From positions 1 to 58,339 of the IMG/VR virus record IMGVR_UViG_3300017700_000657: 58,339 bases of DNA; one strand, 5' to 3'. A model generated the notes under the pieces. It was not told the DNA's origin and made no database searches. It saw only the letters and a program-made list of their open reading frames with translations. The position numbers were made by a program, and so were the translations under genes. The stretch comes from a virus (lineage: Duplodnaviria > Caudoviricetes). This document shows, piece by piece, positions 3,848-58,339 of the stretch. How positions within the stretch are numbered: position 1 is the stretch's first letter; each line of letters opens with the position of its first letter.

Positions 3848-5629
3848 ATGCTTAGCAATCATCCTAGCGTTTTGGGTAGCGGTGCCGCTGGCGTCACTAC
3901 GCCCGCAGCCGCCTCCTCGGCCCTCGACCTCATCAGCACCACGCAGGGCGCGGTTCTTTACAGGAACGCCTCGGCATGGACGGCGCTTACGCCGGGCACC
4001 TCGGGGCAACTCCTCTCGACGCAAGGCGCGGCGGCAAACCCGATTTGGGTCACGGCCACGGGCGGGGCGGGTGATTTCAATGGGCCGGCGTCGAGCACGG
4101 ATAACGCGATGGTGCGGTTCGATGGGACAGGCGGGAAGACGGCACAAAACTCCGCGGTGACCGTATCGGATGTTGCCACGAATAATGTAACCGTCGCTGC
4201 CACGACCGGAAATAGCCTCACGTCTCAAGGAGGCGACAGCGGCGCGTCGCTGGCGCTAGGGAGCGGGGCGAACGGTGCCGCTACATTCAACCGCAATTTG
4301 TTGATTGGAACGTCATCCGATTTCCACGTTGGCGATGGTGGCGACCCCTCGCTCCTCAATTGCTTTATTGGTGGGCACGGTTCCGGCTATCCCGGCGCGG
4401 ACAACACGACAGGCCATTCGATTGTCGCCGTGGGCACGGAGGCCGCGCGCTCCAACTCGACAGGTTACGACATCACCGCAGTTGGCAAATCTGCCGCACG
4501 GATCGGCGTGAGTGCGATTCGCACCACGGCAGGAGGCCGCGCATCGCTCTACTCAAACACGGGCGACGATAACGCTGCATGGGGAGCGTATGCACTCACC
4601 AATGCGGGCGCCATCACGGGCATGACCGCCCTCGGCAACTACGCCGGATTCACACCGACCGGCGGAAGTAATTCGATTTTCATCGGATTCAACGCGGGCA
4701 ACCACGCATCCCAAAAAGTGGCGCCCGTGAATCAAATTGTCATCGGCTCCAACCAATACTCCACCGCCGACAATCAGACGGTGATTGGCAACTCTGGCAC
4801 CACTTCAACGGTGATTTACGGAGCCATCACGGGAGGCTCGATTCAGAACATGCCCATCGGTGACACTACGCGAAATAGCGGCGCGTTCACGACATTGGCG
4901 GCCAACGGAGCGACAACGCTCACCGCTGGCCTCACCGTCTCGGGTGCCCTGACGACGCTCACGCGCACCGGCGCGGCGGCGGCAATCTCGACCGCGCCTG
5001 TGGCGAAACTTCTGAACGCGCAAGGCGATGGCAATTGGGTGACGATGCACTTCGGCGGTGCGGTGTCGGATGGATACGTGGGATTTCTAGATTCAGCGAC
5101 CGCGGCCACGCGCGTCCTTGCCTTTGCAAATCAGGGCACCGTGCGCCAAGAAATCAACGGCAGCGGCGCGGTGCGCTTCAACGCCTACGGCGCGGGCACG
5201 CTCACGACAGATTCAAGTGGTAACATCACCGCCACCTCCGACGCTCGCGCAAAAAACATCACCGGAGACTTTACCACCGGGCTTTCTGCAATCCGCAAAC
5301 TCTCGCCTAAGTTTTACACTTGGAAGAAGGAAACCGGACTGAACACGTCCGATATAAACGTCTCGCTGATTGCGCAAGACCTCATCGCGGCCGGTTTGTC
5401 CGAGGCCGTGAACACGCAGCGCACCGTTGAGGAAATGGACAGCGTGACAACGACCGAGCCAAACGGTCGCCGCCGCACCATCGAATCCACCAAGCGCGAC
5501 GGCAACGGACGCGCAATGACGCGCAAAGTTGAAACAACCTACACCGTGAATGACCGCGCAATCCTCGCCGCGCTGGTGAACGCGATCAAAGAGATGGACG
5601 CCCGCATTGAGAAAATCGAAAGCAAGTGA
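3848..5629 (+). CDS. Tail fibre/spike with C-terminal peptidase S74 intramolecular chaperone
   Basis: Gly-rich autotransporter-like repeats, then SDARAK, YTWK, LIAQD and a terminal coiled coil (LVNAIKEM). Confidence 0.85.
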   Translation: MLSNHPSVLGSGAAGVTTPAAASSALDLISTTQGAVLYRNASAWTALTPGTSGQLLSTQGAAANPIWVTATGGAGDFNGPASSTDNAMVRFDGTGGKTAQNSAVTVSDVATNNVTVAATTGNSLTSQGGDSGASLALGSGANGAATFNRNLLIGTSSDFHVGDGGDPSLLNCFIGGHGSGYPGADNTTGHSIVAVGTEAARSNSTGYDITAVGKSAARIGVSAIRTTAGGRASLYSNTGDDNAAWGAYALTNAGAITGMTALGNYAGFTPTGGSNSIFIGFNAGNHASQKVAPVNQIVIGSNQYSTADNQTVIGNSGTTSTVIYGAITGGSIQNMPIGDTTRNSGAFTTLAANGATTLTAGLTVSGALTTLTRTGAAAAISTAPVAKLLNAQGDGNWVTMHFGGAVSDGYVGFLDSATAATRVLAFANQGTVRQEINGSGAVRFNAYGAGTLTTDSSGNITATSDARAKNITGDFTTGLSAIRKLSPKFYTWKKETGLNTSDINVSLIAQDLIAAGLSEAVNTQRTVEEMDSVTTTEPNGRRRTIESTKRDGNGRAMTRKVETTYTVNDRAILAALVNAIKEMDARIEKIESK

Positions 5630-5891: not shown

Positions 5892-8423
5892 GTGAATCGT
5901 TACAACGCATATGGACCGCAGGATGCCCCGCCGATGGAAGAGGGCGACACCGCGTTCATTGGCGTGGACGATTTCACGAACCCGGAGAATTTGCCGCAAG
6001 GCATCGCGCAGGCAGCTACCAACAAGGATTTCACCAACTCCTCTGCGGCAACGCGCGGTGGCTTCGTATGCCTTCCCGAATTAGGCGCCGCTCCGTTCCT
6101 GAGCGAATGGACCGCGCAGACCACTGCGGCCAATAACGAGTGGGAGTCGATCACCTACGGGAACGGAGTGTTTGTGGCTGTTTCCAACAACGGTGCGAGT
6201 CGCGTGATGACATCTCCCGACGGAATCACATGGACGGCGCGGACCGCGGCGGCTGCGAACTCGTGGAATGAAGTCTGTTTCGGTGCTGGCCTGTTCGTAG
6301 CCGTATCGCTTACCGGCGTAGGCAATCGCGTGATGACCTCGCCCGATGGCATAACGTGGACGAGTCGGACGAGCGCTGCGGATAGCAATTGGCGCTCCGT
6401 CGCCTATGGTGCAGGAAAGTTTGTTGCGGTCGCGTCAAGCGGACCCACCTATGCGATGACATCTACGGATGGCATCACATGGGGCGGAAATACCGGGATC
6501 GCGCAGAACTCGCAGTGCATAACCTACGGAAACGGGACGTTTGTTGCGGTCGGAACATCTGGAGCTGTAGCAACCTCACCCGATGGCGTTACGTGGACTG
6601 CGCGCACCAGCCCGGAGAGCAACGCATGGCAGTCTGTCGCCTACGGGAATGGTCTTTTTGTAGCCGTTTCAAGTTTAGGAACATCACGGGTGATGACTTC
6701 GCCGGACGGGGTTACTTGGACCGCAAGAACTGCCGCAGCGGCGAACGTGTGGGTGTCGGTCGCGTTCGGATACAACCGATTCGTAGCCGTATCGTCTACC
6801 GGCACAAATAATCGGGTGATGATTTCGTATGACGGCATAACATGGTCATCCAGATACAACTCACTTGATGAGTCGTGGACCTGCGTGACCTACGGGGCTG
6901 GAATCTTTGTGGCGGTCGGAATAACCGGAACAGACATGCGGGCCATGACGGCCTACGGAGTCACTGTCTGGGCCAGCGGCACCTACTCCGACCCAAATGC
7001 GCCAGACAGCGATTGGAAGGTGCTCGCTGGGCCTACTTCGGCCGGATTCTACTCGTTCGGGAAGAATAGCGTCAACATCGCCTACCCGTCAGGCTACGTC
7101 GTAAGCCAGCAATCCACGATTGTGCAGGCCAATAACCTGCTGTTCATCTTCGCGGGCGAAGGCCAGACGCCGATCTACTGGGACGGAAATTGGAACGGCG
7201 CGTTTATTGAGGTGCCGGACTACACGGGCGGCGTCCCCGGCTTCGCCAGCATCCCGCAGAGCAACCAAGCGACCTATTGCCAGAACCGCATGTGGGTCGT
7301 AAACGGCAAGGATAACTTGGCTGCTTCCGACGTGCTGGATTTCACGGCCTACGACGACATTGCCAACAGCTTCAATCTGAACACAGGCAGCAGCGACTAC
7401 ATTGTTACCAGTTACCCGTTCGGCGACAACGGTCTGGTGGTGTTCAAATACAAGTCGTCAATCATGCTTCAGAACGTGCAGGGATCGCTGAACGACGTGA
7501 CAGCGACCGAGGTCACGCGTCAGCTCGGAATCATCGGCATCAATGCCGTGACTGCGGTTGGTCCCGATCTGGTCTACATGACCGACCGCGACATCACGAC
7601 AATTCAGCTCAACCTCCAGAACAATCTTCAGGCCGCGACGGAGCCTCTTTCGCGCAACATCAAGTCGATCATCAACCGCGTAAATTGGCCGCAGGCGTAT
7701 CGCGTCAGCATGGCCTACTGGGATAACAAGCTTTACGTCGCGCTTCCGCTGGATAACTCGCCAACGATCAATGCGATTTTGGTCTACAACTTTATCACGA
7801 AACAATGGTGGGGTGAGTGGGGATTTGATTCGTCGCTTGGCATGGACATCCAAGGCTTCGTGACCGGCAATTACAACGGCACCGTAAGGCTGCACGTCGT
7901 CACGTCGGATGGGCGCATTTTCGTCACCGGCCAGTCTAACGTAGACATCAGCGGCACCATCGTGGCGGAGATTGCGGACAGCCTGACGACCCGCGCTTAC
8001 CGCTTGGACAATAACAGCCACATCCCGCGCCGGATGTATATGGACGTGTCCACAAACCGGCCTGAATTTTCGGTTGAGGCGTTTGCGGATGGGGCAAGTG
8101 AGTCGTCGTTTATTCTGACGAACCAGACCTACCTGCGGTCACAAAGCTGGCTGTTCAACGATGCGGCTTACAGCATGGACAACGCGAACGACGACTACAA
8201 CCGGGCGTTCCGAAAGGATTACGCGTCGGGGCCGGACAGCGTGCAGTGCGGAACGGGGTTTCAGCCCGAGATGAGGCAGTCGTATCGCTTCCCGATCATT
8301 TCGCGCCGCAAAGGTCGGCTCAGTTGGTATCGAGTCACAAATGCGACCGGAGTTTGCAACATCGAGGGCGTCGGCATTGAGGCTCGCGCGGGCGATAGAA
8401 ACAGTCTAGTTCAGGTGGGGTAA
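5892..8423 (+). CDS. Tail tube/nozzle (stabilisation) protein with inserted beta-propeller repeats
   Basis: About 7 repeats of WxSVAYGNGxFVAV...TSPDGxTWT at ~6100-6960; nozzle-like C-terminal half (LVYNFITKQWW). Confidence 0.7.
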   Translation: MNRYNAYGPQDAPPMEEGDTAFIGVDDFTNPENLPQGIAQAATNKDFTNSSAATRGGFVCLPELGAAPFLSEWTAQTTAANNEWESITYGNGVFVAVSNNGASRVMTSPDGITWTARTAAAANSWNEVCFGAGLFVAVSLTGVGNRVMTSPDGITWTSRTSAADSNWRSVAYGAGKFVAVASSGPTYAMTSTDGITWGGNTGIAQNSQCITYGNGTFVAVGTSGAVATSPDGVTWTARTSPESNAWQSVAYGNGLFVAVSSLGTSRVMTSPDGVTWTARTAAAANVWVSVAFGYNRFVAVSSTGTNNRVMISYDGITWSSRYNSLDESWTCVTYGAGIFVAVGITGTDMRAMTAYGVTVWASGTYSDPNAPDSDWKVLAGPTSAGFYSFGKNSVNIAYPSGYVVSQQSTIVQANNLLFIFAGEGQTPIYWDGNWNGAFIEVPDYTGGVPGFASIPQSNQATYCQNRMWVVNGKDNLAASDVLDFTAYDDIANSFNLNTGSSDYIVTSYPFGDNGLVVFKYKSSIMLQNVQGSLNDVTATEVTRQLGIIGINAVTAVGPDLVYMTDRDITTIQLNLQNNLQAATEPLSRNIKSIINRVNWPQAYRVSMAYWDNKLYVALPLDNSPTINAILVYNFITKQWWGEWGFDSSLGMDIQGFVTGNYNGTVRLHVVTSDGRIFVTGQSNVDISGTIVAEIADSLTTRAYRLDNNSHIPRRMYMDVSTNRPEFSVEAFADGASESSFILTNQTYLRSQSWLFNDAAYSMDNANDDYNRAFRKDYASGPDSVQCGTGFQPEMRQSYRFPIISRRKGRLSWYRVTNATGVCNIEGVGIEARAGDRNSLVQVG

Positions 8424-20204: not shown

Positions 20205-20522
20205 TTAGCCTAGGACCAACCACCGCAACGACCACCGTTTGCGCAGTTCACGAAACAGCAGATCAAAACCGCAGGAGCGCGATTTGACGAACGATTGGCC
20301 GAACAGGCGCGGCTCAATGCCGTTGCGGCGATTGCCTTGGTGGATCGTTATGGCGTAGCTGATATTTTTTACGTGGTCTGTGACGCGGATCGTTTTGAGC
20401 AAAGTTCCGGCATCTGGAGCGCGGAGCGGTGGGCCGAGGAAGGCGCGGCGACATTGGCGGGATGCCTTTCGGCCGGCGCCTAGATTGGCAATGGCTCGAT
20501 CACTGTTGCCGTAAATTCTCAT
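20205..20522 (-). CDS. Hypothetical basic protein
   Basis: 105 aa ORF flanking the cassette array. Confidence 0.6.
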   Translation of the reverse strand: MRIYGNSDRAIANLGAGRKASRQCRRAFLGPPLRAPDAGTLLKTIRVTDHVKNISYAITIHQGNRRNGIEPRLFGQSFVKSRSCGFDLLFRELRKRWSLRWLVLG

Positions 20523-20526
20523 GGGA

Positions 20527-20880
20527 TTATGATATTATATTGTTCGGCGAAGAACGGAAGGGCGATCCGTCGAGGCGGTTTCGCGTGAGGTAGTCCGCCG
20601 CGTGATAGGCCATTGCGTTCGTGCGGTCCTGCTTGCGGAGCGCGATAATCATTCGCTTCACCAGCGCGATCAGGTCATCGGCTTGGGTTGCAGCGTCGCG
20701 CAGGCCGAGAATGAATCGCTTCGTCTCGCGTTCACCCTCGTCATCGAGTGCGCCGAGAGCGTCGAGCATTTCTTCTGCGTGGTCAGCTTCGGCGCGGAGC
20801 CAAGCCGCCGAACCAAGCGCTACAGCACAACGCGGCGATCCGTCCTCGCTCGCGGGTTTTGTGGTGGATTCGTTACTCAT
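20527..20880 (-). CDS. Cassette gene, hypothetical protein
   Basis: Starts inside attC 20807-20918; ends SPNNIIS across the entry site. Confidence 0.7.
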   Translation of the reverse strand: MSNESTTKPASEDGSPRCAVALGSAAWLRAEADHAEEMLDALGALDDEGERETKRFILGLRDAATQADDLIALVKRMIIALRKQDRTNAMAYHAADYLTRNRLDGSPFRSSPNNIIS

Positions 20881-20918
20881 TGGAAGTTTGCGCCGCGTGG
20901 CTGACCTTGGTGTTCTCT
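20807..20918 (+). other. attC-like recombination site
   Basis: GCCGAAC-CAAGCGC-TACAGCACAACGCGGCG...CGCCGCGTGGCTGA-CCTTGGT-GTTCTCT. Confidence 0.8.
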
Positions 20919-21256
20919 TCCGGCTGGCGCGATTTCGACTGTGCTATCAGTCGGCCAAGCTGTGCTGCGCATTGCGATTGCACGTCGCCAGCCTGCGAGC
21001 ATACAGCGGCGAGCGCGTGCCTTTCTTTGAGGCGAGCGGATTCGGCCCTCTCGCGCCACCACTCGGCCTTGCGGCTCCATTCACGTTCCAGCGCCTCGGC
21101 TTCCACGACAGGAAGAGAACCAGTCGCTACAGCAGCAACGACCTTGGCTCGGCCTGCGGGTTCGGGCGGGGCGAGTTCGCGCGTGGCTTCCTCACGTCCT
21201 GCCTTTCGACCGCGTTTGTATGCTTCTTCAATGAGTATCTCGGCGTTGGTTTTCAT
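20873..21256 (-). CDS. Cassette gene, hypothetical protein (MKTNAEILIEE...)
   Basis: ATG inside attC 21114-21301; ATGA overlap with the upstream ORF. Confidence 0.65.
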   Translation of the reverse strand: MKTNAEILIEEAYKRGRKAGREEATRELAPPEPAGRAKVVAAVATGSLPVVEAEALEREWSRKAEWWRERAESARLKERHALAAVCSQAGDVQSQCAAQLGRLIAQSKSRQPEENTKVSHAAQTSNE

Positions 21257-21301
21257 GCGTCTTTTCTCCGTTCTCGGTCGTGGCTGATCTCCGCGTTCGA
21301 C
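21114..21301 (+). other. attC-like recombination site
   Basis: AGAGAAC-CAGTCGC-TACAGCAGCAACGACC...GGTCGTGGCTGA-TCTCCGC-GTTCGAC. Confidence 0.72.
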
Positions 21302-22446
21302 GGCGCGGCGAAAAACGCTCGGGCAAATTCCATCCTTTTGTGCAGCGCAGCCGAGGGGTTTCCCGCAGCAAATTGCCAAGCTCGCGCCGTATCTACCTCG
21401 CCAAGCAATCGCACCGTGTCTTCGGCTTTTTCTGCACGCTTTGAGCACTCCACAAGACTGTCCTTGATCTGCTCGATCTCTCGGGCGCGCACTTCGAGCT
21501 TGTATTCCATGCGCCCAATAGTCGCGCGATACGCCTCGATTTCGTCCGAGTGTTTTGAGATTTCGATGCAGGCATCGCGGTATTTTGCCGCCCAATCGCT
21601 TTCGTCGAGCCGCTTGTCGGCTTCGCAGGCGTAGTCCTTGAGCGCGGCGCAGATTGCTTCGTGCTGCTGATGCGTCGGGGTTTCTTGCAGCTTGGCCCAT
21701 AGGGTGGAGGCTGCGTCTCTAGCGTCTTTGTCGTATTTGGTTTTCATTCGGAAGAATAGTTTTCGGGTATCAGTGGCGCGCCTTTCGAACGAAGAGAATT
21801 GCGCACAGCACTGTTCCGCGAATTCGACCGAGAACCAGTCATCCGCGCGGAGTTTCCCTTCCATGTCCACCCACCATCCGGGGCGGGCGATTCGGCTGAT
21901 CGTTTGCAGTTCAGCGGCGAGATTATCCGGGCCGAGTCCGCCAGCGAATCCGACCACTTTCGCGGTGTTGGGATGCTGCCACGATTCGGGAGAGATTCCC
22001 CGGCCTCCGCTGCCGTCCACCAGCAGGACATGGTTTTCCGCATCGACCGCCATCAGGTAGCGATTCTGCGGCATGTGCTGGGTGATGATCGTGTGGCTCG
22101 GATAGAGGCGGCAGAGATGCCGCACGTCGGGGATTTCGAGCAGGCCGTTGACCTGGATGCGCTGGAATCCACTGACAGGCAGGCTGCCTTCCATCAGCTT
22201 CGCCCGCGCTCCGCGTCCGCAGACATGCAGTGATGCGCGGCGGAGTTCGAGCGACGTTTCCCGAATCCATTCCCATCGCGGGTATCGGTTCCGGCCTTCT
22301 GGCGTTTCCGTGTAGAGCAGCCCGATTTCGGCATCCAGTTTCGCCAGTGCTGATACGTCCGTCCGCTCATCCGCGCCTGTCACAGTCAAGAACGGTGAAC
22401 AAGTGCCTGATCCCAACGGGGACCGCTCTGTTGTCGAAGTTTTCAT
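21253..22446 (-). CDS. PRAI (TrpF)-like TIM-barrel protein fused in frame to a coiled-coil protein (second start at 21747)
   Basis: VTGAD, LVDGSGGRG, VGFAGGLGPDN and WVDMEGKLR motifs; the distal 164 aa look unrelated. Confidence 0.7.
   Translation of the reverse strand: MKTSTTERSPLGSGTCSPFLTVTGADERTDVSALAKLDAEIGLLYTETPEGRNRYPRWEWIRETSLELRRASLHVCGRGARAKLMEGSLPVSGFQRIQVNGLLEIPDVRHLCRLYPSHTIITQHMPQNRYLMAVDAENHVLLVDGSGGRGISPESWQHPNTAKVVGFAGGLGPDNLAAELQTISRIARPGWWVDMEGKLRADDWFSVEFAEQCCAQFSSFERRATDTRKLFFRMKTKYDKDARDAASTLWAKLQETPTHQQHEAICAALKDYACEADKRLDESDWAAKYRDACIEISKHSDEIEAYRATIGRMEYKLEVRAREIEQIKDSLVECSKRAEKAEDTVRLLGEVDTARAWQFAAGNPSAALHKRMEFARAFFAAPSNAEISHDRERRKDA
21784..21819 (+). other. Collapsed attC remnant
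   Basis: TTCGAAC...GTTCCGC only 36 bp long; CGCGCCTTTCGAAC is near-complementary to cassette start GTTCGACGGCGCG at 21295. Confidence 0.45.
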
Positions 22447-22513
22447 TTTGATAGGTAGCTGTGTGAGTATTCAACGCTCGCTCTCGTCCCCGTGGGATAG
22501 GCTGGCGTTAGAG
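22394..22513 (+). other. attC-like recombination site
   Basis: GGTGAAC-AAGT-GCCT(G)ATCCCA(A)CGGGGAC...GTCCCCGTGGGATAGGC-TGGC-GTTAGAG; two extrahelical bases on the left arm. Confidence 0.85.
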
Positions 22514-22915
22514 TGCCCTGATTTTGCCATGCAGTCGCGCCCGCACAGACCCGCAGGCGAGCATCATTTCCGGGTAGTCGAGCTTGTAGATTGGCGCGAT
22601 TTTGTAGAGCGCCCACGCTGCCGGGTTGCGGACGTTCCCAGCTTCGAGTTGCTCGATGTAGCGCGCTTCGACGCCGCTTTTGTTTGCCACTTCGGCCGGC
22701 GTGAGTCCGGTGAGTTCACGCGCAACGCGCATCACGGTTGCAAACGTGAGCCCCGAGTCTTCGAGGGGCACCCTAACCCCGGCATCACAGCCAACGCGCC
22801 TGACTGAGCCTGCGAATGCGGACAGGGCGCGTCCGCTCGCTGCCTTTTCGGCGTCGGTTTGGTCTTGGAGTGCGGAGTCCAATTTGCGGAGGTCGCTGAG
22901 GATTTGATGTCTCAT
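22508..22915 (-). CDS. Cassette gene, XRE-family HTH regulator
   Basis: ARELTGLTPAEVANKSGVEARYIEQLEAG...NP; stop is the TAA of TAAC. Confidence 0.8.
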   Translation of the reverse strand: MRHQILSDLRKLDSALQDQTDAEKAASGRALSAFAGSVRRVGCDAGVRVPLEDSGLTFATVMRVARELTGLTPAEVANKSGVEARYIEQLEAGNVRNPAAWALYKIAPIYKLDYPEMMLACGSVRARLHGKIRAL

Positions 22916-22963
22916 GGGTTTGCTTCTGCGCTCTGGGCGCGTTGCTGACTGCCAATGTTCGCC
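22771..22963 (+). other. attC-like recombination site
   Basis: CCCTAAC-CCCGGCA-TCACAGCCAACGCGCC...GGCGCGTTGCTGA-CTGCCAAT-GTTCGCC. Confidence 0.75.
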
Positions 22964-23241
22964 CAATCAAGTGAGCGCGTCTCAGTTCCACACCAAGGGC
23001 AGAAATTCACGGCGGGAAGTTCGCACCCAAAACGGATCGAACTTGGATCATCTCCGTATGCGCTGGCGAGCTTTCCGTAAGCCTCATTGTCTGTTCCCGA
23101 TGTGAAGGCGAGCGCCATATCAGAACAGCACACTTGTCTAGGTTCGTATTTGCCGCGCACCCAAACTCGGGCGAACAATGGCGTTGCAGGGTCAACCGCC
23201 TGGGCGGTCTGGTCTTCGATGGTTTCTGGCTTCGGTTTCAT
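22912..23241 (-). CDS. Cassette gene, small Cys-rich (zinc-ribbon-like) protein
   Basis: CC...FCPWCG motif; starts inside attC 23170-23302. Confidence 0.7.
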   Translation of the reverse strand: MKPKPETIEDQTAQAVDPATPLFARVWVRGKYEPRQVCCSDMALAFTSGTDNEAYGKLASAYGDDPSSIRFGCELPAVNFCPWCGTETRSLDWANIGSQQRAQSAEANP

Positions 23242-23302
23242 CTTTTGGTTTTCAGAGTTGATTGGTTTCTAGTCGGCGGTGCCCTGAACTTTGGCGTTGG
23301 GC
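23170..23302 (+). other. attC-like recombination site
   Basis: GGCGAAC-AATGGCG-TT(G)CAGGGTCAACCGCC...GGCGGTGCCCTGAA-CTTTGGC-GTTGGGC; R' fits GTTRRRY. Confidence 0.85.
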
Positions 23303-23767
23303 CGAATGTAGTTGGCTTGGATTAGTTAGATACCGTTCAATGACGGCTTTCGCGTCCTCGGTGCTGCGGCACACCATTGCGGCATAACCCTGCTCTGATG
23401 CGTAGGAAATGAAAGCGTTCTGCTCATCCCTGACGCGCCCCGTCGCTGTCTTCATTTCGACGTAAAGACCATGCCAGTGCCCGCGCGGGACGCTCAGAAA
23501 CAAATCAGGAACTCCGGGCCTTAATCCCTCGCGCTTCAAAAATACCATCGCCAGTGGGTCGCGCCGACCGCCGTTCGGAATTGAAAACAGCAGGCGCTCG
23601 GGAATGCCGTAGGATTTGCACGCAACAGCCCACCACTTAATGAGTGCGCACTGCATGGCGCTTTCCTCGTTGCCGTGCTTTTTCTTGGGAGGCGGGACCG
23701 GCACGTTCTCGCCGGTCATGGCGTTGGATGCGATGATAAGCTCGCGGACTGTGACGTAGCGGGGCAT
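23252..23767 (-). CDS. VRR-NUC domain nuclease
   Basis: IPNGGRR, GVPDL, LYVEMKT...GR...Q motifs. Confidence 0.9.
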   Translation of the reverse strand: MPRYVTVRELIIASNAMTGENVPVPPPKKKHGNEESAMQCALIKWWAVACKSYGIPERLLFSIPNGGRRDPLAMVFLKREGLRPGVPDLFLSVPRGHWHGLYVEMKTATGRVRDEQNAFISYASEQGYAAMVCRSTEDAKAVIERYLTNPSQLHSAQRQSSGHRRLETNQL

Positions 23768-23772
23768 GGCGG

Positions 23773-24996
23773 TTATTGGCTGAACTGGACCAGATTACGG
23801 ACGCCCTGCGTGGCCAGCGGCGCAAACGTGCTGTCGAAAATACTGGCCGCGCTGACGCCAGCCTTGCTCGTTTTCGGCACGCCCATACTGCGGGCAATCT
23901 CATCCTTCAGTGCCGTCATACTCGGTTTCGTGACGCGGGCAATCTGCTCGTCCGCTGGCAGCAGTTCGCGCATGGCACGGAAGAACGCCTGCGGGTCGTT
24001 TACGCTCCATGCGCCCCGTTGCGTCACCCGTGTAATCACGGTGCCGTCTGCGGCCACCAGTTGCGGGCTGCGGTCAAGCCGGTCGTTTAGCATGGCCTTG
24101 GCGTCCTCGGTGGGCTTGGCCAGTTCCTTGGCGCCAATGATGAACTCCGCCAGCGTGGCGTCGTCGGGCTGGGCTTTAAGCGAGGCCAGCGATTCCTCTG
24201 TCATGGTCAGTCTCATAAGTTTTTGTTTGGCGCGGATCGCGGGGCATGAGCAGCCCACGCAGAAGCGACAGCCTTTGATGGTGGTGTTGAGTTCAAGCGG
24301 CCGACTGATGGCGTCGGTGATTTTACCTGCCAGCGTGGCAACCGCGGCATCGAGGTCAGTGATCGTGACGCACGATACGCGAGGATGGCCCTCGTTTACG
24401 CTGTCGCCGTCCTCGTCGTTACGCGGCTGCACGATATAAAAAGTCACGCTTTGCAGGCTGGGGTAAGCCCGCTTCAGAAGCACGCAGTATCCCAGAATCT
24501 GCCAGTTACTATCTGCGCAGTCCACTGGGTCGTAGCCGGTCTTCAAGTCCCATCCGATGGCGTGCGTGGCGTCTGGCGACAGGGCGAGGCAGTCGATGTG
24601 GCCGGATAGCGTGAAGCCGTTGTAGGGCTTGGTGCCAACCATTGGCCTGCCATTGAACCACTCAACGGTTTCAATTTTGCAAGGCGTGTCGGCGGTGAAC
24701 TCGTAGGCTAGCGCGGCTTCGCACTCCAATGAGTAGGATGCGGGCGTGCTCTCCATGACATGGCGCACGTAATAGTCACTGATCCATGTGCTGTGAGGAA
24801 ACGGGCCGCGAGGCTGCGGACCAATGTCACCGACCGCGCCCATCTCGGTCTTGATGCGCTGGGCGCTGATCCAGTGGCACCACGTCCCTTCGTCCCCATC
24901 ATCGCCATAGCGGGGTGCCACGATAGCGTTGACGGTGAGCGAGCCGGGGCAGGAGAGCACACGGTCGAGGCTGGAGCAGCGAATGGTCGGGATCAT
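23773..24996 (-). CDS. PD-(D/E)XK exonuclease (Cas4/RecB-like; likely RecT partner)
   Basis: SSLDRVLSCPGS, GTxxH, GHID, DLKTG, QxxxY, CRFCxxxxCP. Confidence 0.85.
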   Translation of the reverse strand: MIPTIRCSSLDRVLSCPGSLTVNAIVAPRYGDDGDEGTWCHWISAQRIKTEMGAVGDIGPQPRGPFPHSTWISDYYVRHVMESTPASYSLECEAALAYEFTADTPCKIETVEWFNGRPMVGTKPYNGFTLSGHIDCLALSPDATHAIGWDLKTGYDPVDCADSNWQILGYCVLLKRAYPSLQSVTFYIVQPRNDEDGDSVNEGHPRVSCVTITDLDAAVATLAGKITDAISRPLELNTTIKGCRFCVGCSCPAIRAKQKLMRLTMTEESLASLKAQPDDATLAEFIIGAKELAKPTEDAKAMLNDRLDRSPQLVAADGTVITRVTQRGAWSVNDPQAFFRAMRELLPADEQIARVTKPSMTALKDEIARSMGVPKTSKAGVSAASIFDSTFAPLATQGVRNLVQFSQ

Positions 24997-24997
24997 G

Positions 24998-25636
24998 TTA
25001 ATTATCAAACCAAAACACGAAACGAACATCCTCTGGTGCGGCCTTATGCAGCGCCATGCATATGGCTTTCCAGAACGACCCAGCGCACTGGTGATAGTAA
25101 CGCACCCACTCAACTTCGCAGTGCATTCCCTTGGTGTCGGAGCCAGCCGCAATCGCAGCCTCCATCTCGGAATGTGTGACTTTTCTCACTGCGCTTCCGA
25201 ATACTGCACCGCACCAAGACTCAGGTGCGCCACGGCGTTTCCAGTTATCAAAATTACGCGCGTCCACCAATCCGCTCAGTGTTGTCTTCTGATTCCAGTC
25301 GTAGTCCAGAACTTCGCGCAGCGTGAGCCACGAATGCGAGTGACCATCGCGTTGCCAATACTTGGCTTCGGCGCGCACTTGCTCGGAAATGTCATCTGGC
25401 AAGCCCTTCGGTTGCGCGATAGGGTTGAATCCGGCGCCGGTATTTACTCCGGCAAAACCGCGTCCGTTGCGCACGTCCGCAAGGATCGCGAACAAGTTGT
25501 AGTTGCGGTCATAGTAAGCCATGTCGTCGTAGGCGACCGAGGCGCGGCCTTCCTTGTATTTGTCGGACCAGACATCAGCGGACTTCCACTGACCGTCGAT
25601 TTTTTGCTCTTGGTATAGGTGAATGTCGCAGCCCAT
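24998..25636 (-). CDS. Hypothetical phage protein (MGCDIH...RFVFWFDN type)
   Basis: RNYNLFAILADVRN and HSHSWLT motifs of a recurrent phage family. Confidence 0.8.
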   Translation of the reverse strand: MGCDIHLYQEQKIDGQWKSADVWSDKYKEGRASVAYDDMAYYDRNYNLFAILADVRNGRGFAGVNTGAGFNPIAQPKGLPDDISEQVRAEAKYWQRDGHSHSWLTLREVLDYDWNQKTTLSGLVDARNFDNWKRRGAPESWCGAVFGSAVRKVTHSEMEAAIAAGSDTKGMHCEVEWVRYYHQCAGSFWKAICMALHKAAPEDVRFVFWFDN

Positions 25637-30861: not shown

Positions 30862-31352
30862 TTTGACACGAATGGATTTTTAACGACGCGGCGAAATTCT
30901 GCGGCTTGGGCTGACCGTGCGGCTGACCATGCGGCTGACCGTGCGGCTGACTCTGCGGCTGACTCTGCGGCTGACCATGCGGCTGACCGTGCGGCTGACT
31001 CTGCGGCTGACCATGCGGCTTCCAGTTCTTTGCGTGTTGCATCACCGTTCGCAAATCGCTCCGCCATGTCGCAAGCTGCAACGCTGCGTGGATCGGTGAG
31101 CAGTGCGCCCGTTGTGCGCCCATCGGCAAGCGGCGTATTACGTGCACACCAGACCATGTAAAGGCGAACGGCCTTCTCGTCGGCTTCCGCGTCAATGGCA
31201 TTTAGAATCCAGCACAGCCAATCGACGCGCGGACAGGCACGCCAGACGGCAGACATGGTTTTGTGTTTGGTGGCAAATTCGCGGCCTTCAGCGCACGCGT
31301 TGGTGACGTCGCAGAATCGGGCCGGTGATAGTTTCAGGAGGGCGGTTTTCAT
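30858..31352 (-). CDS. Hypothetical protein with AAWS/AAES/AARS repeats
   Basis: ACxEG, DWLCW, DPRS...AERFANG, then tetrapeptide repeats. Confidence 0.8.
   Translation of the reverse strand: MKTALLKLSPARFCDVTNACAEGREFATKHKTMSAVWRACPRVDWLCWILNAIDAEADEKAVRLYMVWCARNTPLADGRTTGALLTDPRSVAACDMAERFANGDATRKELEAAWSAAESAARSAAWSAAESAAESAARSAAWSAARSAQAAEFRRVVKNPFVSK
30909..31016. repeat. Coding tandem repeat, 9 x 12 bp GGCTGAC(CG/CA/TC)TGC
   Basis: Directly visible in the sequence. Confidence 0.95.
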
Positions 31353-48847: not shown

Positions 48848-49410
48848 AATACAGCTACGACGCAACATCGCTGCCGGGTGAGGAATGGCGCCCCGTTGTT
48901 GGATACGAGGGATACTACGAAGTGAGCAGCATGGGTCGCGTGAAATCCATGGCGCGAACCATTGACGCATCTGATGGGTCGCAACGCCGCTATCGCACGA
49001 AAATAATGACGCCGAAGAGCCGCGGAGAATACCTGTTCACAATCTTGAGCAAGGGACTGAGATACGAGAAGATTTCCGTTGCGCGCGAAGTCGCGAAGGC
49101 GTTTCACGGCCCGCCAAAGCCGCGTGAAGAAGTGAACCACAAAGACGGAAATAAGCACAACAACTCATCGCAAAACCTTGAGTGGATGACCAAGAGCGAG
49201 AACGCCACGCACAGCCATCGCGTCCTGCTGAAAAACGTGCGCGAGCAGAAATACAACCACAAGCTGACCGACGAAAATGTCTTACTTGGCCGAAGGCTAT
49301 TTGCGGCCGGTCAGGCCACCTACTCATCGCTTGGCCGCATGTTCGGAACAAGCCACGTAGCCATTCGCAATGCAATTGTTGGTAAGTCGTGGAAGACGCT
49401 CAATGGCTAA
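48844..49410 (+). CDS. NUMOD4-HNH homing endonuclease
   Basis: EEWRPVVGYEGYYEVSSMGRVKS; VNHKDGNKHNN...NLEW. Confidence 0.92.
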   Translation: MKYSYDATSLPGEEWRPVVGYEGYYEVSSMGRVKSMARTIDASDGSQRRYRTKIMTPKSRGEYLFTILSKGLRYEKISVAREVAKAFHGPPKPREEVNHKDGNKHNNSSQNLEWMTKSENATHSHRVLLKNVREQKYNHKLTDENVLLGRRLFAAGQATYSSLGRMFGTSHVAIRNAIVGKSWKTLNG

Positions 49411-51103
49411 AAAAATCCACTTCAGCGACGAATACCAGCCCCGTTTCGGTGTTCCTCATCGCGCTCCGCTAACTCCCGAAGAACTCGCCGGGTTAAGCGA
49501 GGAGAGACTGCGGGAATACATGCACAGTCGGCAGCTCATTGAGACCGAGAGCGCCAAAAACCCCGTGGGCTGGGGATGGACGCTTCCATCATGGGAGCAG
49601 GTTTTTGACCAATGGAAAAATTATAACGTCCACATTGTCCTAGGCGGGAACCAAAGCTCGAAGACGACGCTCGGCGCTCGCATGTCCGTCTGGGCTGCGT
49701 GCGAGATTCCAGAGGCAGAGGTCTACAACTTCCACATCAGCGACAAGCGCTCAATTGACGACCAACAGCGGTTTATCTACGAGAACTTGCCGGATTGGCT
49801 GAAGAACATGCCCACAAAAAAGGGCATCGCCCACAGCCTGCAATACACGCAGAAGAACGGATTCACTGACGGTATCGCCATCATGCCTCCCGTGAAAGGC
49901 TACCGCCGAGGAGGCTCAATTAAGTTTTATAATTATGCGCAGTTTTCCCAGAACGACCAAATAATTGAGGGCATTAAGGCGAATTTCGTTTGGGCTGATG
50001 AGAAAATCCCCGTGGATTTATTTGAGACACTGCGCATGGGCCGTCTAGGCACCTACCACGGACGTATGCTAATCACTTATACGGTCGTTGACGGATGGAA
50101 CGATGTCGTGGAACGCATTTTGTCGCGCACGCGAACACTCAAGACCCGTTACTGCAATCACCCTAAAATTATGGCAAACCTGCCTATCATGCAGGAAAGC
50201 CTATCCGTTGGATCGTGCTGTATTCACTACGCATGGACAGAGGACAATCCATTCGCGGACTTCAAGGAGTTTATGAAGCTGTATGGCAACGAGTCCAGAG
50301 AGGTGATCTTGGCTCGCGCATATGGGATACCAACCAAGTCAGTTACCTCCGCCTTCCCCCTCTTCAGCAAAGAATACGTCAAAGACGGCGGCAACGTGGT
50401 CAAACACGAAGACCTCCCATGGCTCAAAACCCGCAAAAACGCCAAGGGCCAAGACGTGCCGTATCCAGTCACGTTCTACATGGCCCTCGACCCCGCTGGC
50501 TCCAAAGCGTGGTTCATGGTATGGGTCGCCATTGACGCCGCCAATACGTGGTGGGTCTACCGCGAGTCACCCGAGAACGAGGAATGGGCCTTGCCCGGCA
50601 ACAAGCCCGGCCCGGCGACGACGCCGCGCATCCACGGCATCAAAGCCTACGTCGAGCACATCACGACCGCCGAGAGCGGCCCGGACGGCGACCGCAACAT
50701 CTACGAGCGCATCATCGACCCGCGCATGGGTGCCGCGGAGCGCCAGTCGCAGGACGGGGCTACGACGATCATCAGCGAACTGGACGATGCCGGGCTCACG
50801 TTCATCCCGGCTCCGGCCGCATCGTCCGAGGCTAACAAGGGCGAGATCGAGGACGGTATCCAGCTTATCAATAACCTGCTGGCCTACAAAACGGACCAGC
50901 CGATTGATGCGCTTAACCGGCCACGGATTTACGTCAGCGACAGGTGCCAGAACCTGATCTACGCTTTGCAGGAATACACGGGCAAATTGGGGGCGACGGA
51001 GGCTACGAAAGACCCGATTGATTGCTGTCGCTACCTCCGCAAAGCCAATTGCGAGTTCGTGCCTTTCGTGAAAGATAACGGCAGTCGGACGGGGGTATAT
51101 TAA
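49403..51103 (+). CDS. terL: Terminase large subunit
   Basis: GGNQSSKT (Walker A), VWADE (Walker B), ALDP, IIDP and KDPIDCCRY (nuclease domain). Confidence 0.9.
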   Translation: MAKKIHFSDEYQPRFGVPHRAPLTPEELAGLSEERLREYMHSRQLIETESAKNPVGWGWTLPSWEQVFDQWKNYNVHIVLGGNQSSKTTLGARMSVWAACEIPEAEVYNFHISDKRSIDDQQRFIYENLPDWLKNMPTKKGIAHSLQYTQKNGFTDGIAIMPPVKGYRRGGSIKFYNYAQFSQNDQIIEGIKANFVWADEKIPVDLFETLRMGRLGTYHGRMLITYTVVDGWNDVVERILSRTRTLKTRYCNHPKIMANLPIMQESLSVGSCCIHYAWTEDNPFADFKEFMKLYGNESREVILARAYGIPTKSVTSAFPLFSKEYVKDGGNVVKHEDLPWLKTRKNAKGQDVPYPVTFYMALDPAGSKAWFMVWVAIDAANTWWVYRESPENEEWALPGNKPGPATTPRIHGIKAYVEHITTAESGPDGDRNIYERIIDPRMGAAERQSQDGATTIISELDDAGLTFIPAPAASSEANKGEIEDGIQLINNLLAYKTDQPIDALNRPRIYVSDRCQNLIYALQEYTGKLGATEATKDPIDCCRYLRKANCEFVPFVKDNGSRTGVY

Positions 51104-55313: not shown

Positions 55314-55583
55314 ATGACCCTAGCCGATCAACAACTCGCGCGCCAAAAGCGCATTCAAGCCTCGCTCATCGGCCTCGCTGCCGATACCCGTTTCCGCGAC
55401 TTCATGGAAACCGTGCGCGAGTGCCGTGAAGGCGCGCTGCTCAACCTTGTGGACGGTGCCGTGATCCAGAACGAGCGCGCCTCACTGGCCTGCACGGGCG
55501 AAATCGCCGCCTATATGGCGCTCATTCGCACGTATGACGAGGCGGTGGCGCAGGCGGCGCTGGCGAGGGAGGAGAAGGCGTAA
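55314..55583 (+). CDS. Small protein after portal
   Basis: 89 aa helical protein in a typical post-portal position. Confidence 0.7.
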   Translation: MTLADQQLARQKRIQASLIGLAADTRFRDFMETVRECREGALLNLVDGAVIQNERASLACTGEIAAYMALIRTYDEAVAQAALAREEKA

Positions 55584-55668
55584 CACTAAAGCTCAGACAC
55601 GAGCGTAGGACCAACCATGAAAACCAAAAAGAGCGCAGCCCGCTCGTTGTCTGTGGCGATTGTTCGGC
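55578..55668 (-). other. attC-like recombination site
   Basis: Plus strand: GCGTAAC-ACTAAAG-CTCAGACACGAGCG...CGCTCG(T)TGTCTG(T)GGCGATT-GTTCGGC. Confidence 0.78.
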
Positions 55669-55946
55669 GCTTCCGATTTCTGCGCGTCGGCGAATACCCA
55701 CGCAAGGGCGACCAATTCCTATACTGCGGAGATTCACCCGGAGAAAAACGCGGCTGGAAGAACGCAGAAGCAAACCTTGTGGCTAAGTGGCGCGGCCCTG
55801 TGCCGTCGTGGTATAAGGGCCGATACCGCCGCCGCGTCGAAAAGAAGGAATCCGCTGAAATGAAAATGGTCCGCGCTCGGCTCGCCGCAACATATCGAGC
55901 CGGATTCGTGGAGCAATTCCGCGTCTTGCCGAACATTAAGGTCTGA
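55617..55946 (+). CDS. Cassette gene, basic hypothetical protein
   Basis: ATG in the attC loop with AGGA upstream; ends LPNIKV in the next attC. Confidence 0.7.
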   Translation: MKTKKSAARSLSVAIVRRFRFLRVGEYPRKGDQFLYCGDSPGEKRGWKNAEANLVAKWRGPVPSWYKGRYRRRVEKKESAEMKMVRARLAATYRAGFVEQFRVLPNIKV

Positions 55947-56021
55947 CATGACGCGCTCTCCCTCACGATCCGAACACCCCGCGGTCGAGTGCGCGGCATT
56001 GTCAGAAGCGTCTGGTTCCAC
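55928..56021 (-). other. attC-like recombination site
   Basis: Plus strand: GCCGAAC-ATTAAGG-TCTGACATGACGCGC...GCGCGGCAT(T)GTCAGA-AGCGTCTG-GTTCCAC. Confidence 0.78.
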
Positions 56022-56038
56022 CTAAACTTTTACCCACT

Positions 56039-56440
56039 ATGGAAACACAAAAACCAACCCCCGATCAAAAACCTACTGCGAGGACAAATCTGAGCCCCGA
56101 GGAGCGCTTTCGCTCCGGGCTATCTCTCGGCTTCATTGCGGGCGTGCTCGCGACCGCAATCGTGCTGCTCTGTTCAGCGTTGCTGGCTTTATTCATAGTT
56201 GAGACCCGCAACGTAAAGACAGAAGCGACTGCCGCAAATACCTCAGCCAAGCCCGTGTTTATCGGAGCTGGCCAGCCAACCCCATTCCACCACTGCATTG
56301 TGCTGGGCGCTGGAGCGGAGCCACAAAAAGATTACGGACTGGTCACCGGTTCACTGACGGGACCGAATTGCGGCAGGATCTGCCACGGGGCAAGACGGTC
56401 GATCTTTTGCCGTCGTGGCCGAAATGAGTGGAACAACTGA
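56039..56440 (+). CDS. Cassette gene, single-TM membrane protein
   Basis: Hydrophobic segment LGFIAGVLATAIVLLCSALLALFIV; ends EWNN across the entry site. Confidence 0.6.
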   Translation: METQKPTPDQKPTARTNLSPEERFRSGLSLGFIAGVLATAIVLLCSALLALFIVETRNVKTEATAANTSAKPVFIGAGQPTPFHHCIVLGAGAEPQKDYGLVTGSLTGPNCGRICHGARRSIFCRRGRNEWNN

Positions 56441-56669
56441 TTCCGCGAACCACTTCGCATATCCAGCCGCGCCCACCCAGCGCGGCTTTTCCATGCCCCA
56501 AAATCGTGCAAAATGCACGATCTACCTCTGATCGCGCGCTATAGCCACGACCATGCAATTTGCACGACTCCGCCATTGACATTGCAAATTGCACGATTAG
56601 TTCAATTGGCCACACGGCAATCCTGCCGCGCGCTAGGATTTAGAAACAGCCCCTTGACGGCTCTAACTC

Positions 56670-57867: not shown

Positions 57868-58339
57868 ATGGCCCTAGCCACCTCCTACAACGTCTCCGGT
57901 GACCGCGAAGCGCTCACCAATTTCCTCACCATCCTCGAACCCGAGGACACCCCGAAGACCTCTACGTTTGCAAAAACGACCAAGGTCACGAACACCTACC
58001 AAACCTGGCAGGCCGATACCCTCGCAAATGTTGACTTCGCTGGCGTCCTTGAAGGCGCTGACGTGGCCGCATTCAACAACGAAGCCGCCAACCGCGCCCG
58101 CTTCGGCAACTACATCCAGAAGTTCTGGCGCCCGTGGATGGTCTCGGACCTCCAAGAAGCGTCCGATCCGGCCGGCACTGACGGTGAAGTTGCAAACAGC
58201 AAGGTCAAGGCCATGCGCGAGCTTAAACGCTCCATCGAAGCCGCCGTTGGCTCCGATAACGACATGCAGGCCGATACCGGCCTCGCGCCCTACAAGACCC
58301 GTGGTCTTGGTTCGTGGATTAAGGCCACCGCTCAGACCA
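57868..58339 (+). CDS. Major capsid protein, 5' part (MALATSYNVSGDREALTNFL...)
   Basis: REALTN...PEDTP...WQADTL...EGAD...NYIQKF motifs; open to the window end and continues at the window start. Confidence 0.88.
   Translation, partial: MALATSYNVSGDREALTNFLTILEPEDTPKTSTFAKTTKVTNTYQTWQADTLANVDFAGVLEGADVAAFNNEAANRARFGNYIQKFWRPWMVSDLQEASDPAGTDGEVANSKVKAMRELKRSIEAAVGSDNDMQADTGLAPYKTRGLGSWIKATAQT
58217..58339. repeat. Terminal direct repeat, copy 2
   Basis: Identical to 1-123. Confidence 0.97.

Follow-up and report, generated by a model that had tools for sequence, protein, structure and literature searches.

The locus described here raises the question of whether attC, the recombination site of integron cassettes, can also supply the starts and ends of the genes that it moves. 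It lies in IMG/VR record IMGVR_UViG_3300017700_000657, a virus of the Caudoviricetes (Duplodnaviria) whose DNA was analysed over its whole length of 58,339 nt, referred to below as the window. A preliminary description had claimed that in a packed run of small open reading frames (ORFs) the attC sites double as translation modules, with the start codon of each ORF in the loop of its own site and the stop codon provided by the neighbouring one. Our analysis makes it very likely that this complete phage genome carries two clusters of attC sites lacking an integron integrase (CALINs), with attC sites of the type found in the Opitutaceae, and that the cassette genes, which lie on the attC bottom strand, usually start inside their own attC and cross AAC as an asparagine (Asn) codon. 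The arrays are called CALINs because there are at least two attC sites in each cluster and no integrase in the genome. This is reportedly the sense in which Cury et al. 2016 used the term. The sites, the cassette limits, the coding strand and the frame regularities are demonstrated by the sequence comparisons given below.

Are these sites attC sites at all? A covariance model, R1, was built from 15 sites (a MAFFT site alignment, which is out of structural register, was used solely as its seed) and was used to collect 28 sites from other phage contigs, none from the window, on which a second model, R2, was built. Run over the whole window with filters off, R2 finds exactly seven sites, all on the gene-sense strand and at the coordinates implied by the preliminary description. 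Their E-values, which are rough since the calibration was shortened, are given with the sites in the following list; the next match has E 0.28. Array A consists of five cassettes (23302-20542, minus strand) and array B of two (55578-56434, plus strand), and each ends in a terminal R box that is not a full site.

23170..23302, minus strand: W1 attC, between the VRR-NUC nuclease and 109-amino acid (aa) ORFs; R2 E 1.4e-3; boxes GCCCAAC (23302-23296) and GTTCGCC (23176-23170)
22771..22963, minus strand: W2 attC, between the 109-aa and helix-turn-helix (HTH) ORFs; R2 E 3.6e-4; boxes GGCGAAC (22963-22957) and GTTAGGG (22777-22771)
22394..22513, minus strand: W3 attC, between the HTH and 397-aa ORFs; R2 E 8.7e-4; box CTCTAAC, which contains the TAA stop of the HTH gene
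21114..21301, minus strand: W4 attC, between the 397-aa and 127-aa ORFs; R2 E 6.2e-5; boxes GTCGAAC and GTTCTCT; aligned with its counterparts in G004 and G003
20807..20918, minus strand: W5 attC, between the 127-aa and 117-aa ORFs; R2 E 1.8e-18; boxes AGAGAAC and GTTCGGC
20542..20548, minus strand: terminal R box GCCGAAC (SPN), belonging to the 117-aa cassette; GTTCGGC at 20813-20807 is its reverse complement; end of array A, with no hairpin after it
55578..55668, plus strand: B1 attC; R2 E 7.4e-6; box GCGTAAC and 3' box GTTCGGC; ATG 55617 in the loop
55928..56021, plus strand: B2 attC; R2 E 1.4e-6; boxes GCCGAAC (LPN) and GTTCCAC; the downstream ORF begins past the site, at 56039
56428..56434, plus strand: terminal R box GTGGAAC (EWN), belonging to the 133-aa cassette; GTTCCAC at 56015-56021 is its reverse complement; end of array B

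The AAC and GTT triplets are kept in all seven window sites and in all 28 seed sites, where the model pairs 5-203, 6-202 and 7-201 are invariant. The sites also show the other features named for attC in passages of PMC6393395: an inner stem bearing extrahelical bases, a central spacer that is unpaired and a terminal loop that varies. An extra T or G is found on the 3' arm of W1, W2, W3 and W5, the loop varies from 0 to 122 nt and the longest window sites reach 188-193 nt. In W1 the arms are CAGGGCACCGCC and GGCGGTtGaCCCTG, with ATG 23241 between them in the loop, and a constrained fold of W3 gives a 16-bp stem with two additional 3'-arm bases and ATG 22446 in the loop. Among the 28 non-window sites stem covariation is 0.304 as against 0.096 in shuffles, none of the 500 shuffles equals it, and cells with double-sided change in stem pairs number 64 where 24.7 are expected; pair 18-190, for example, is GC in 17 sites, CG in 10, AU in one and unpaired in none. 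The alignment behind these values had been fitted to the model, a bias towards the structure, and one or two extra 3'-arm bases put the mid-stem out of register in many of its rows.

Simpler tests give a different picture, and they are what would be expected if this were an operon of the usual phage kind, whose AAC and GTT triplets had been matched by eye, with no recombination sites. In a sliding 110-nt DNA fold-energy scan of the whole window the junctions are not outliers (percentiles 0.10-0.87), and constrained AAC..GTT folds of 45-150 nt are of ordinary stability against the genome background (percentiles 0.40-0.81). The 7-bp consensus of attC is RYYYAAC/GTTRRRY, of which GTTRRRY is the form quoted in a passage of PMC9892861. 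On the minus strand of 20400-23500 there are two RYYYAAC and one GTTRRRY, so few boxes fit the strict consensus, and among the window sites GCCCAAC of W1 is the sole strict RYYYAAC fit; the commonest box is GCCGAAC. W1, W2 and W3 score just 22-24.5 bits with R2. We attribute the negative energy and consensus tests to their low power in a structured GC-rich genome (59% GC) and to sites beyond the length limit: four AAC boxes have no GTT within 150 nt, of which two belong to full sites longer than 150 nt and two are the terminal boxes. Duplex-energy and bulge-tolerant stem scans do recover the true sites along with many false positives, from which they were separated only by the covariance models and by a rule chaining the boxes of each cassette.

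This rule is that the 5' GTTnnnn box of a cassette is complementary to its own 3' nnnnAAC box, and it holds along all seven window cassettes. The match is seven of seven bases for the 109-aa cassette of array A (GTTCGCC/GGCGAAC), the 127-aa and 117-aa cassettes and the cassettes of ORFs 55617 and 56039, 6/7 for the HTH cassette (GTTAGGG/CTCTAAC) and 5/7 for the 397-aa cassette; outside the fixed triplets the boxes agree at 25 of the 28 informative positions. The same chain is seen in L005 (G005), a related contig. It has eleven sites made up of nnnnAAC, 8-10 nt, a perfect stem of 11-15 bp around a loop of 33-71 nt, 8-14 nt and GTTnnnn, and in nine of the eleven the GTTnnnn box is the exact reverse complement of the nnnnAAC of the following gene. 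The box complementarity and the independent R2 search refute the view that triplets were matched by eye. The covariation, together with the duplicated cassette, the L005 integrase, the Opitutaceae sites and the contig breakpoints at AAC described below, also stands against it, and we give it practically no credence.

Where do the cassettes begin and end? One L005 cassette (ORF MSQPGG...) is present twice, at 4318-4687 and 6287-6657. Each copy starts right after an AAC and ends at an AAC, the outer sequence differs on both sides, and the protein tails accordingly read ..KPNTQLRNAGANQSTPDSHE in one copy and ..KPNNV in the other. When the window site between the 397-aa and 127-aa ORFs is aligned with its G004 counterpart, likeness begins exactly at AAC. 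Comparison of protein families gives the same limit. The 127-aa family, with 12 sequences at 34-63% identity, has RQPEEN unchanged in 12/12 and the motif VVAAVATGSLPV nearly so, and after the Asn both sequence and length vary. Eight of 14 members of the 117-aa family end in PN plus a variable tail, and the 109-aa family keeps WAN in three of four and is divergent afterwards. P0023, which is 97% identical to the window 117-aa protein, has the tail AEISHARERRTDESKP, which resembles the tail of the window 397-aa protein, that is, the region upstream of a 127-family cassette. Four different cassettes (in the window, G004, G003 and P0023) are found upstream of the same 127-family attC. The preliminary description had proposed that homologue similarity would end at the Asn and that the attC-encoded N-terminal peptide would travel with the gene. 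Each comparative test that it put forward gave the expected outcome: the first part stands for the 109-, 117- and 127-aa families, and the second holds with the limit that the N-terminal peptide is not always unchanged. The loop that carries the ATG can vary between copies of one attC, so that N-termini are not fixed.

Breakpoints at AAC are found again in runs of other studies, which cover about one third of the 3-kb stretch and, being assemblies, carry no information on rare forms or depth; no RNA run was among those listed, and stretches of 20400-23400 without contig cover in X2, X3, X6 and X7 were left out of the evidence. In X3, X6 and X7, which represent three studies, one contig each follows the window, with 0-1 differences, from 22504 to 23400, 22960 and 23284, respectively. 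The identity of these contigs with the window extends over 457-897 nt and breaks off 3 nt past the AAC of the HTH cassette (22509-22507), and the 397-aa cassette is absent from them. Past 22504 they have 150 letters unlike the window, a contact at 21111-21140, 168 other letters and a contact at 20912-20930, and past 20911/20912 (AAC 20914-20912), where loose ends are found in four runs, they are again unlike the window. The two contacts correspond to the conserved 3' arm plus GTT box, and to the AAC box, of the 127-family cassette. Because these islands of 19-30 nt are conserved parts of a site, we read them only as indicating that a 127-family cassette follows. Further loose contig ends are found at 20544/20545 in X2, X3 and X6 (terminal AAC 20544-20542), at 22960 in X6 (AAC 22959-22957) and at 23298 in X7 (AAC 23298-23296). 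In the duplicated cassette, the site alignment, the contigs of other studies and the protein tails alike, the breakpoints fall within 0-3 nt of AAC. Strand exchange between AA and C of the bottom strand (AA/C) would fit these breakpoints to within 0-3 nt, a resolution at which sequence cannot name the exact bond. As far as sequence comparison goes, these data demonstrate exchange of whole cassettes between related genomes with breaks at AAC. The homologue tails and the contig breakpoints also support the suggestion of the preliminary description that cassettes could be reordered with only a short C-terminal tail changing.

Viral contigs searched with the 109-, 127- and 117-aa and HTH proteins one at a time gave no matches, and neither did a DNA search of deposited phages. 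A metagenome scan with the 117 family gave two distant loci, without a convincing R2 site there; the near-identical P0023 contig was not among them.

It might be argued that the sites are decayed relics of a captured bacterial array that no longer recombine, and that their overlap with genes is incidental. The lack of an integrase in the window, the low scores of W1-W3 and the small number of boxes that fit the strict consensus would all agree with such decay. However, contigs from three studies, identical to the window for 457-897 nt, differ from it in their cassettes from AAC on, which points to recent exchange. The same 127-family attC stands behind four different upstream cassettes, and a passively captured fragment would not be expected to have all its cassettes on the bottom strand, unlike bacterial arrays. 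We therefore regard decay as improbable.

Which enzyme could move these cassettes, and in which host? No tyrosine recombinase (PF00589) is found in the window genome, with 0 matches, or in G001-G004. An integrase is found in the phage-like contig L005, which also encodes a tail-fibre protein and an amidase: a 324-aa protein (L005 (G005):6698-7672) that matches the integron integrase family TIGR02249 with 282 bits against a cut-off of 265. Its gene lies 41 nt past the AAC of the last cassette. A complete integron has intI and attI beside the array; intI has this place in L005, and the window has no intI. In L005 intI has its canonical position relative to the sites and the cassette ORFs alone are reversed. 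A 21-nt motif from the 3' half of the attC is found in 58 stretches of bacterial genomes, nearly all from Opitutaceae/Opitutales (Verrucomicrobiota), in which R2 finds 274 sites at E <= 1e-3 in long one-stranded arrays. The boxes of these bacterial arrays are GCCCAAC, GCCGAAC, GGCTAAC and GCCTAAC, and proteins in Opitutaceae genomes are 35-42% identical to the L005 integrase. Since the same type of attC is found in chromosomal integrons of Opitutaceae, we assign the window sites to the Opitutaceae integron type, and the phage host was probably a member of this family.

Two further observations were made in the course of these searches. Horticoccus sp. (L035, L040, L045, L048, L053, L056, L059, L061, L067, L076, L079) has a very large chromosomal integron, with an attC of about 143 nt every 400-800 nt on at least nine contigs, and many of its cassettes share a length of 309 nt. 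In the deposited-phage collection nine records have an IntI-like gene, none more than 40% identical to the L005 integrase. One of these genes, in Virus Rctr41k (L088, KX853513.1; 2317-5678), is 39% identical to that of L005 and follows seven packed co-directional small ORFs. The layout is that of L005, and R2 found no site among those small ORFs of Rctr41k and one weak match (E 0.011) elsewhere.

On which strand are the cassette genes? In 13 bacterial loci with the same attC type (91 sites, 78 cassettes) the long open frame is opposite to the model strand in 57 cassettes, on the same strand in three and ambiguous in 18, so that the order in the bacterial arrays, as judged from open frames, is the textbook one of a gene and then its attC. 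The canonical organization, a top-strand ORF followed by its attC, is not what is found in the window. Here the ORFs named in the preliminary description are read in the other sense, as follows, and in array A they belong to a minus-strand operon in the order exonuclease, VRR-NUC, 109-aa, HTH, 397-aa, 127-aa and 117-aa ORFs.

22912..23241, minus strand: 109-aa cassette ORF with a zinc-ribbon-like CPWC motif; homologues P0001-P0003; codon log-odds +3.9
22508..22915, minus strand: HTH regulator cassette ORF, 135 aa; HTH_31, E 6e-6; phrog_7241; codon log-odds +15.6
21253..22446, minus strand: 397-aa cassette ORF; codon log-odds +37.5; boxes GTTCACC/GTCGAAC
20873..21256, minus strand: 127-aa cassette ORF, with homologues in the 127-aa family
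20527..20880, minus strand: 117-aa cassette ORF; codon log-odds +19.1; boxes GTTCGGC/GCCGAAC
55617..55946, plus strand: 109-aa cassette ORF of array B; boxes GTTCGGC/GCCGAAC
56039..56440, plus strand: 133-aa cassette ORF of array B; codon log-odds just +2.3; boxes GTTCCAC/GTGGAAC

In a GC-rich genome such ORFs could be shadow frames of true genes on the opposite strand. By length of open frame alone this would be hard to dismiss, since both strands are open across the body in 25 of 34 phage cassettes. However, with codon log-odds trained in the window on long genes outside the operon, 8/8 sense ORFs are positive and 8/8 antisense ORFs negative. The sense translation also beats the antisense one in all six homologue pairs, narrowly so for the 127 family (99.0 vs 89.7 and 63.2 vs 60.1). 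The HTH domain is in the sense frame, the sense frame of the 397-aa cassette is open for 1106 nt as against 471 nt opposite, and the arrays are co-oriented with the flanking phage genes. We consider coding on the opposite strand very improbable. The duplicated cassette and the G004 alignment show that the upstream hairpin travels with its gene and that likeness starts at AAC. The genes are therefore on the bottom strand of attC, which integron integrases fold and cut according to passages of PMC6393395 and PMC9892861.

Some features of individual cassette ORFs may be added here. Homologues of the 397-aa protein share only residues 9-285 (L001, 3920-4645) or 9-217 (L002), and its C-terminal coiled-coil part, which has a weak HMMR_N match, is missing from them. 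In L001 the 397-aa homologue comes directly after the exonuclease, whose tail (..RVNDEVSHDD) is attC-encoded. The idea that the N-terminal domain of the 397-aa protein is TrpF-like was dropped, with 0 matches to PDB-chain sequences and none in Pfam. In the 127-aa ORF GGTTCTCTTCC and GGAAGAGAAC form a perfect 10-nt inverted repeat encoding GSLP and PEEN.

How do these genes start and stop? Six of the ORFs listed above begin with the ATGs at 23241, 22915, 22446, 21256 and 20880 on the minus strand and 55617 on the plus strand, and all six ATGs lie between the stem arms of a site, as had been claimed. Reading of the ORFs likewise bears out AAC as an in-frame Asn codon in the C-termini WAN, PSN, EEN, SPN, LPN and EWN. 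The HTH gene does end at the TAA of CTCTAAC (22510-22508), and the 89-aa ORF at 55314-55583, which the preliminary description had not listed, ends in the same way at the TAA of the B1 box GCGTAAC. A stop in the AAC phase is present at all seven window sites, 4-15 codons past AAC. In three sites the stop overlaps the next start within the loop, as ATGA in W2 (22912-22915, where the TGA overlaps ATG 22915) and W4 (21253-21256) and as ATGAGTAA in W5 (20873-20880), again as had been described. The last 15 codons of the VRR-NUC gene, which is not a cassette, enter W1 outside the AAC phase.

The larger sample consists of 45 phage sites, seven in the window and 38 in G001, G003, G004 and G005. The upstream ORF reads AAC as Asn at 34 of the 45 (in one, ATC in a degenerate box), has its stop inside the R box at seven (TAAC five, TGAAC one, TAGAAC one) and crosses in another phase at four. 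The crossing frame is therefore the AAC phase in 34/38, or in 30/33 outside the window, and the refuting case foreseen in the preliminary description, a random AAC phase in a larger sample, is not what is seen. A stop within 24 codons is present in the AAC phase (phase 0) at 44/45 sites and in the other two phases at 18/45 and 29/45. Of the 11 sites where the gene now upstream does not use this phase, 10 have such a stop as well, which removes the suspected circularity. The tails after the Asn are 1-17 codons long, with a median of 12. The downstream in-frame ATG is in the loop at 23/45 sites (6/7 in the window), and stop and start overlap by 4 nt at six sites and by 8 nt at another six.

Several findings, in addition to the weak energies, scores and consensus boxes described above, weigh against this interpretation, and most of them would be accounted for if the attC arrays are real and the frame regularities are by-products of codon usage rich in GC at third positions (GC3) and of the tight packing of genes in phage operons. 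The baseline is high: of the AAC triplets in the phage's other genes 57-59% are in frame, and 67% in the context RYY[YG]AAC, and 19/70 other window genes have an in-frame AAC within their final 15 codons. ATGA is the commonest junction in the whole genome, with 17 other same-strand junctions. Where the ORF of a canonical bacterial cassette runs into its own attC, AAC is likewise mostly in phase 0 (25/32), and the stop is at TAAC in 15 of 91 bacterial sites. The ATG is in the 5' spacer or arm at eight of the 45 phage sites, and at 14/45 no in-frame ATG is found within the site. The 45 sites are not independent, as they include homologous cassettes and one duplicate, so counts are inflated by common descent and the P values below are upper bounds on significance. 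There are also the variable loops, the strand ambiguity in frame length and the dependence of any activity in the window phage on an enzyme supplied in trans, as none found by our searches is encoded.

The figure of 34/38, however, is above every null that was tried. The nulls from the phage's other genes range from 0.27 to 0.67 by context and give P values from 1e-15 to 1.4e-3, the last against the 67% for RYY[YG]AAC. Neither the excess of phase-0 stops over the 18 and 29 of the other phases, including the 10/11 sites where that phase is unused upstream, nor the uniformly short tails would be expected of mere packing. We thus consider it unlikely that the regularities are by-products, while leaving this explanation appreciable weight.

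Read along the gene strand, a cassette consists of C, the 5' spacer and arm, the loop, the 3' arm and spacer, GTTnnnn, the gene body and nnnnAA. On our reading the gene usually begins in the loop of its own attC and reads out through the 3' arm and the GTT box, passes the crossover at its 3' end with AAC as an Asn codon, and stops 1-17 codons on; the stop is in the 5' half of the attC that comes next and in many cases overlaps the start there (ATGA, ATGnnTAA). For the movement and translation of such cassettes the following can be proposed. An integrase acting in trans, from a host integron or a co-infecting phage, may move cassettes by the folded-strand pathway. With the cut at its 3' end and its attC at the 5' end, a moved gene would keep its start and N-terminus and swap only the 1-17 residues after the Asn, which it would draw from the attC of the next cassette. 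Selection may keep the AAC phase common and a stop in that phase, so that any order of cassettes terminates. A ribosome ending the upstream gene could also melt the 5' arm of the RNA hairpin and free the ATG in the loop, which would couple translation of the two genes. We speculate further that phages of Opitutaceae share a cassette economy of genes on the recombinogenic strand, coupled in any order, with the integrase either carried by the phage or borrowed from the host. This last proposal is tentative, and we hold it to be possible rather than probable.

Small accessory genes of phages are a class that often holds host-takeover and counter-defence functions. The arrangement proposed here would explain how a phage can swap such genes without breaking the operon, and it would link phage mosaicism to a defined site-specific mechanism. 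Integron cassettes are usually described as promoterless genes with the recombination site after the gene, in one orientation. Here the site is reversed and within the genes, so that a single element of about 100-190 nt carries both recombination signals and predicted translation signals, which would amount to a natural design rule for frame-safe modular gene exchange. There are also two practical consequences. What look like invariant protein motifs in the 127-aa family, RQPEEN and VVAAVATGSLPV, correspond to the R boxes and to the 3' arm of attC. Their conservation is at the DNA level, and a protein-family model made from such cassettes would have recombination sites as its anchors. Standard energy and consensus scans overlook such attC sites in GC-rich genomes.

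The window is a complete phage genome of 58.2 kb with direct terminal repeats (bases 1-123 recur at 58217-58339) and is rated 100% complete. It encodes a large terminase, a DnaB-like helicase, a RecT-like protein, a DNA helicase and a DUF2800 exonuclease; the phrog_2 terminase was absent from G001, G004 and G005 when searched for. The features next to the arrays are the following.

23773-25152, minus strand: exonuclease gene of the operon
23252..23767, minus strand: VRR-NUC nuclease gene (PF08774, E 5e-11; phrog_824), the last non-cassette gene before array A
49370-51103: terminase gene

Array B is placed between a 718-aa ORF with its 89-aa neighbour and a 397-aa ORF at 56670, close to the terminase gene, and after it, at about 56466-56495, there is a GC-rich hairpin with a T run that has the look of a terminator. 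Past the last cassette box of array A, where GCCGAAC is followed by AATATAAT..., the minus strand at 20205-20522 is AT-rich with a doubtful 105-aa ORF. This stretch could be an attI-like end remnant; the matching position in L005 precedes intI. Elsewhere in the genome, about 10 tandem 12-nt units (GGCTGACCGTGC-like) at 30885-31040 are in register with coding frames on both strands, and a 66-nt direct repeat is present at 6294-6359 and 6780-6845 (77% identical, 486 nt apart) within an 843-aa ORF at 5892-8423.

How does this arrangement compare with known systems? Integrons in phages have already been published, and the in-attC coding arrangement did not turn up in the literature that we searched. 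A full-text search gave no account of cassette genes starting inside attC, of bottom-strand cassette arrays or of integrons in phages of Verrucomicrobiota, although supplementary tables might list one. The parts of Qi et al. 2023 (PMC9892861) available to us describe 17 phage CALINs and integron parts in 21 phages, and IntI1 recombined five of the six phage attCs tested. Like the window arrays, these CALINs are clusters of attC without an integrase in phage genomes. Unlike them, the cassettes described there are bacterial-oriented, and those parts mention neither starts within attC nor a frame rule.

A frame that crosses the crossover is known from ORF-11/ORF-18 of attI1 in class 1 integrons, as described in passages of PMC8876359: the in-phase stop comes from the core site of the cassette that is inserted, and the ORF promotes translation of the next gene by coupling. 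There, on the same account, it is one short top-strand leader at attI1, whereas here every cassette protein is concerned, at attC x attC junctions; the strand is the bottom one, and the ATG is in the attC loop. Coupling through ATGA is a feature of phage operons with the same overlaps; here the overlap is in the loop of a recombination hairpin and moves with the downstream cassette. Reversal of another kind is reported for Spirochaetota, where IntIs are in reverse orientation according to the portion of 10.1101/2022.02.06.479319 that we consulted; the present case differs in that intI is canonical and the ORFs are reversed.

With bacterial integrons the phage arrays share the AAC/GTT core triplets, an attC whose inner stem has additional bases on one of its arms, whose spacer is unpaired and whose loop varies, complementary R boxes in each cassette and breakpoints at AAC. 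They also share a TIGR02249 integrase beside the array, in a related contig, and the type of attC found in chromosomal arrays of Opitutaceae. They differ from bacterial attC in that window sites reach 188-193 nt and few boxes are strict RYYYAAC. The correct orientation of cassettes relative to the cassette promoter Pc is held to be essential in passages of PMC5027507 and PMC6393395. In bacterial arrays of the same attC type 57/78 cassettes have the usual arrangement, with attC after the gene, whereas the phage ORFs are on the bottom strand and have their attC at the 5' end of the gene, inside the coding sequence.

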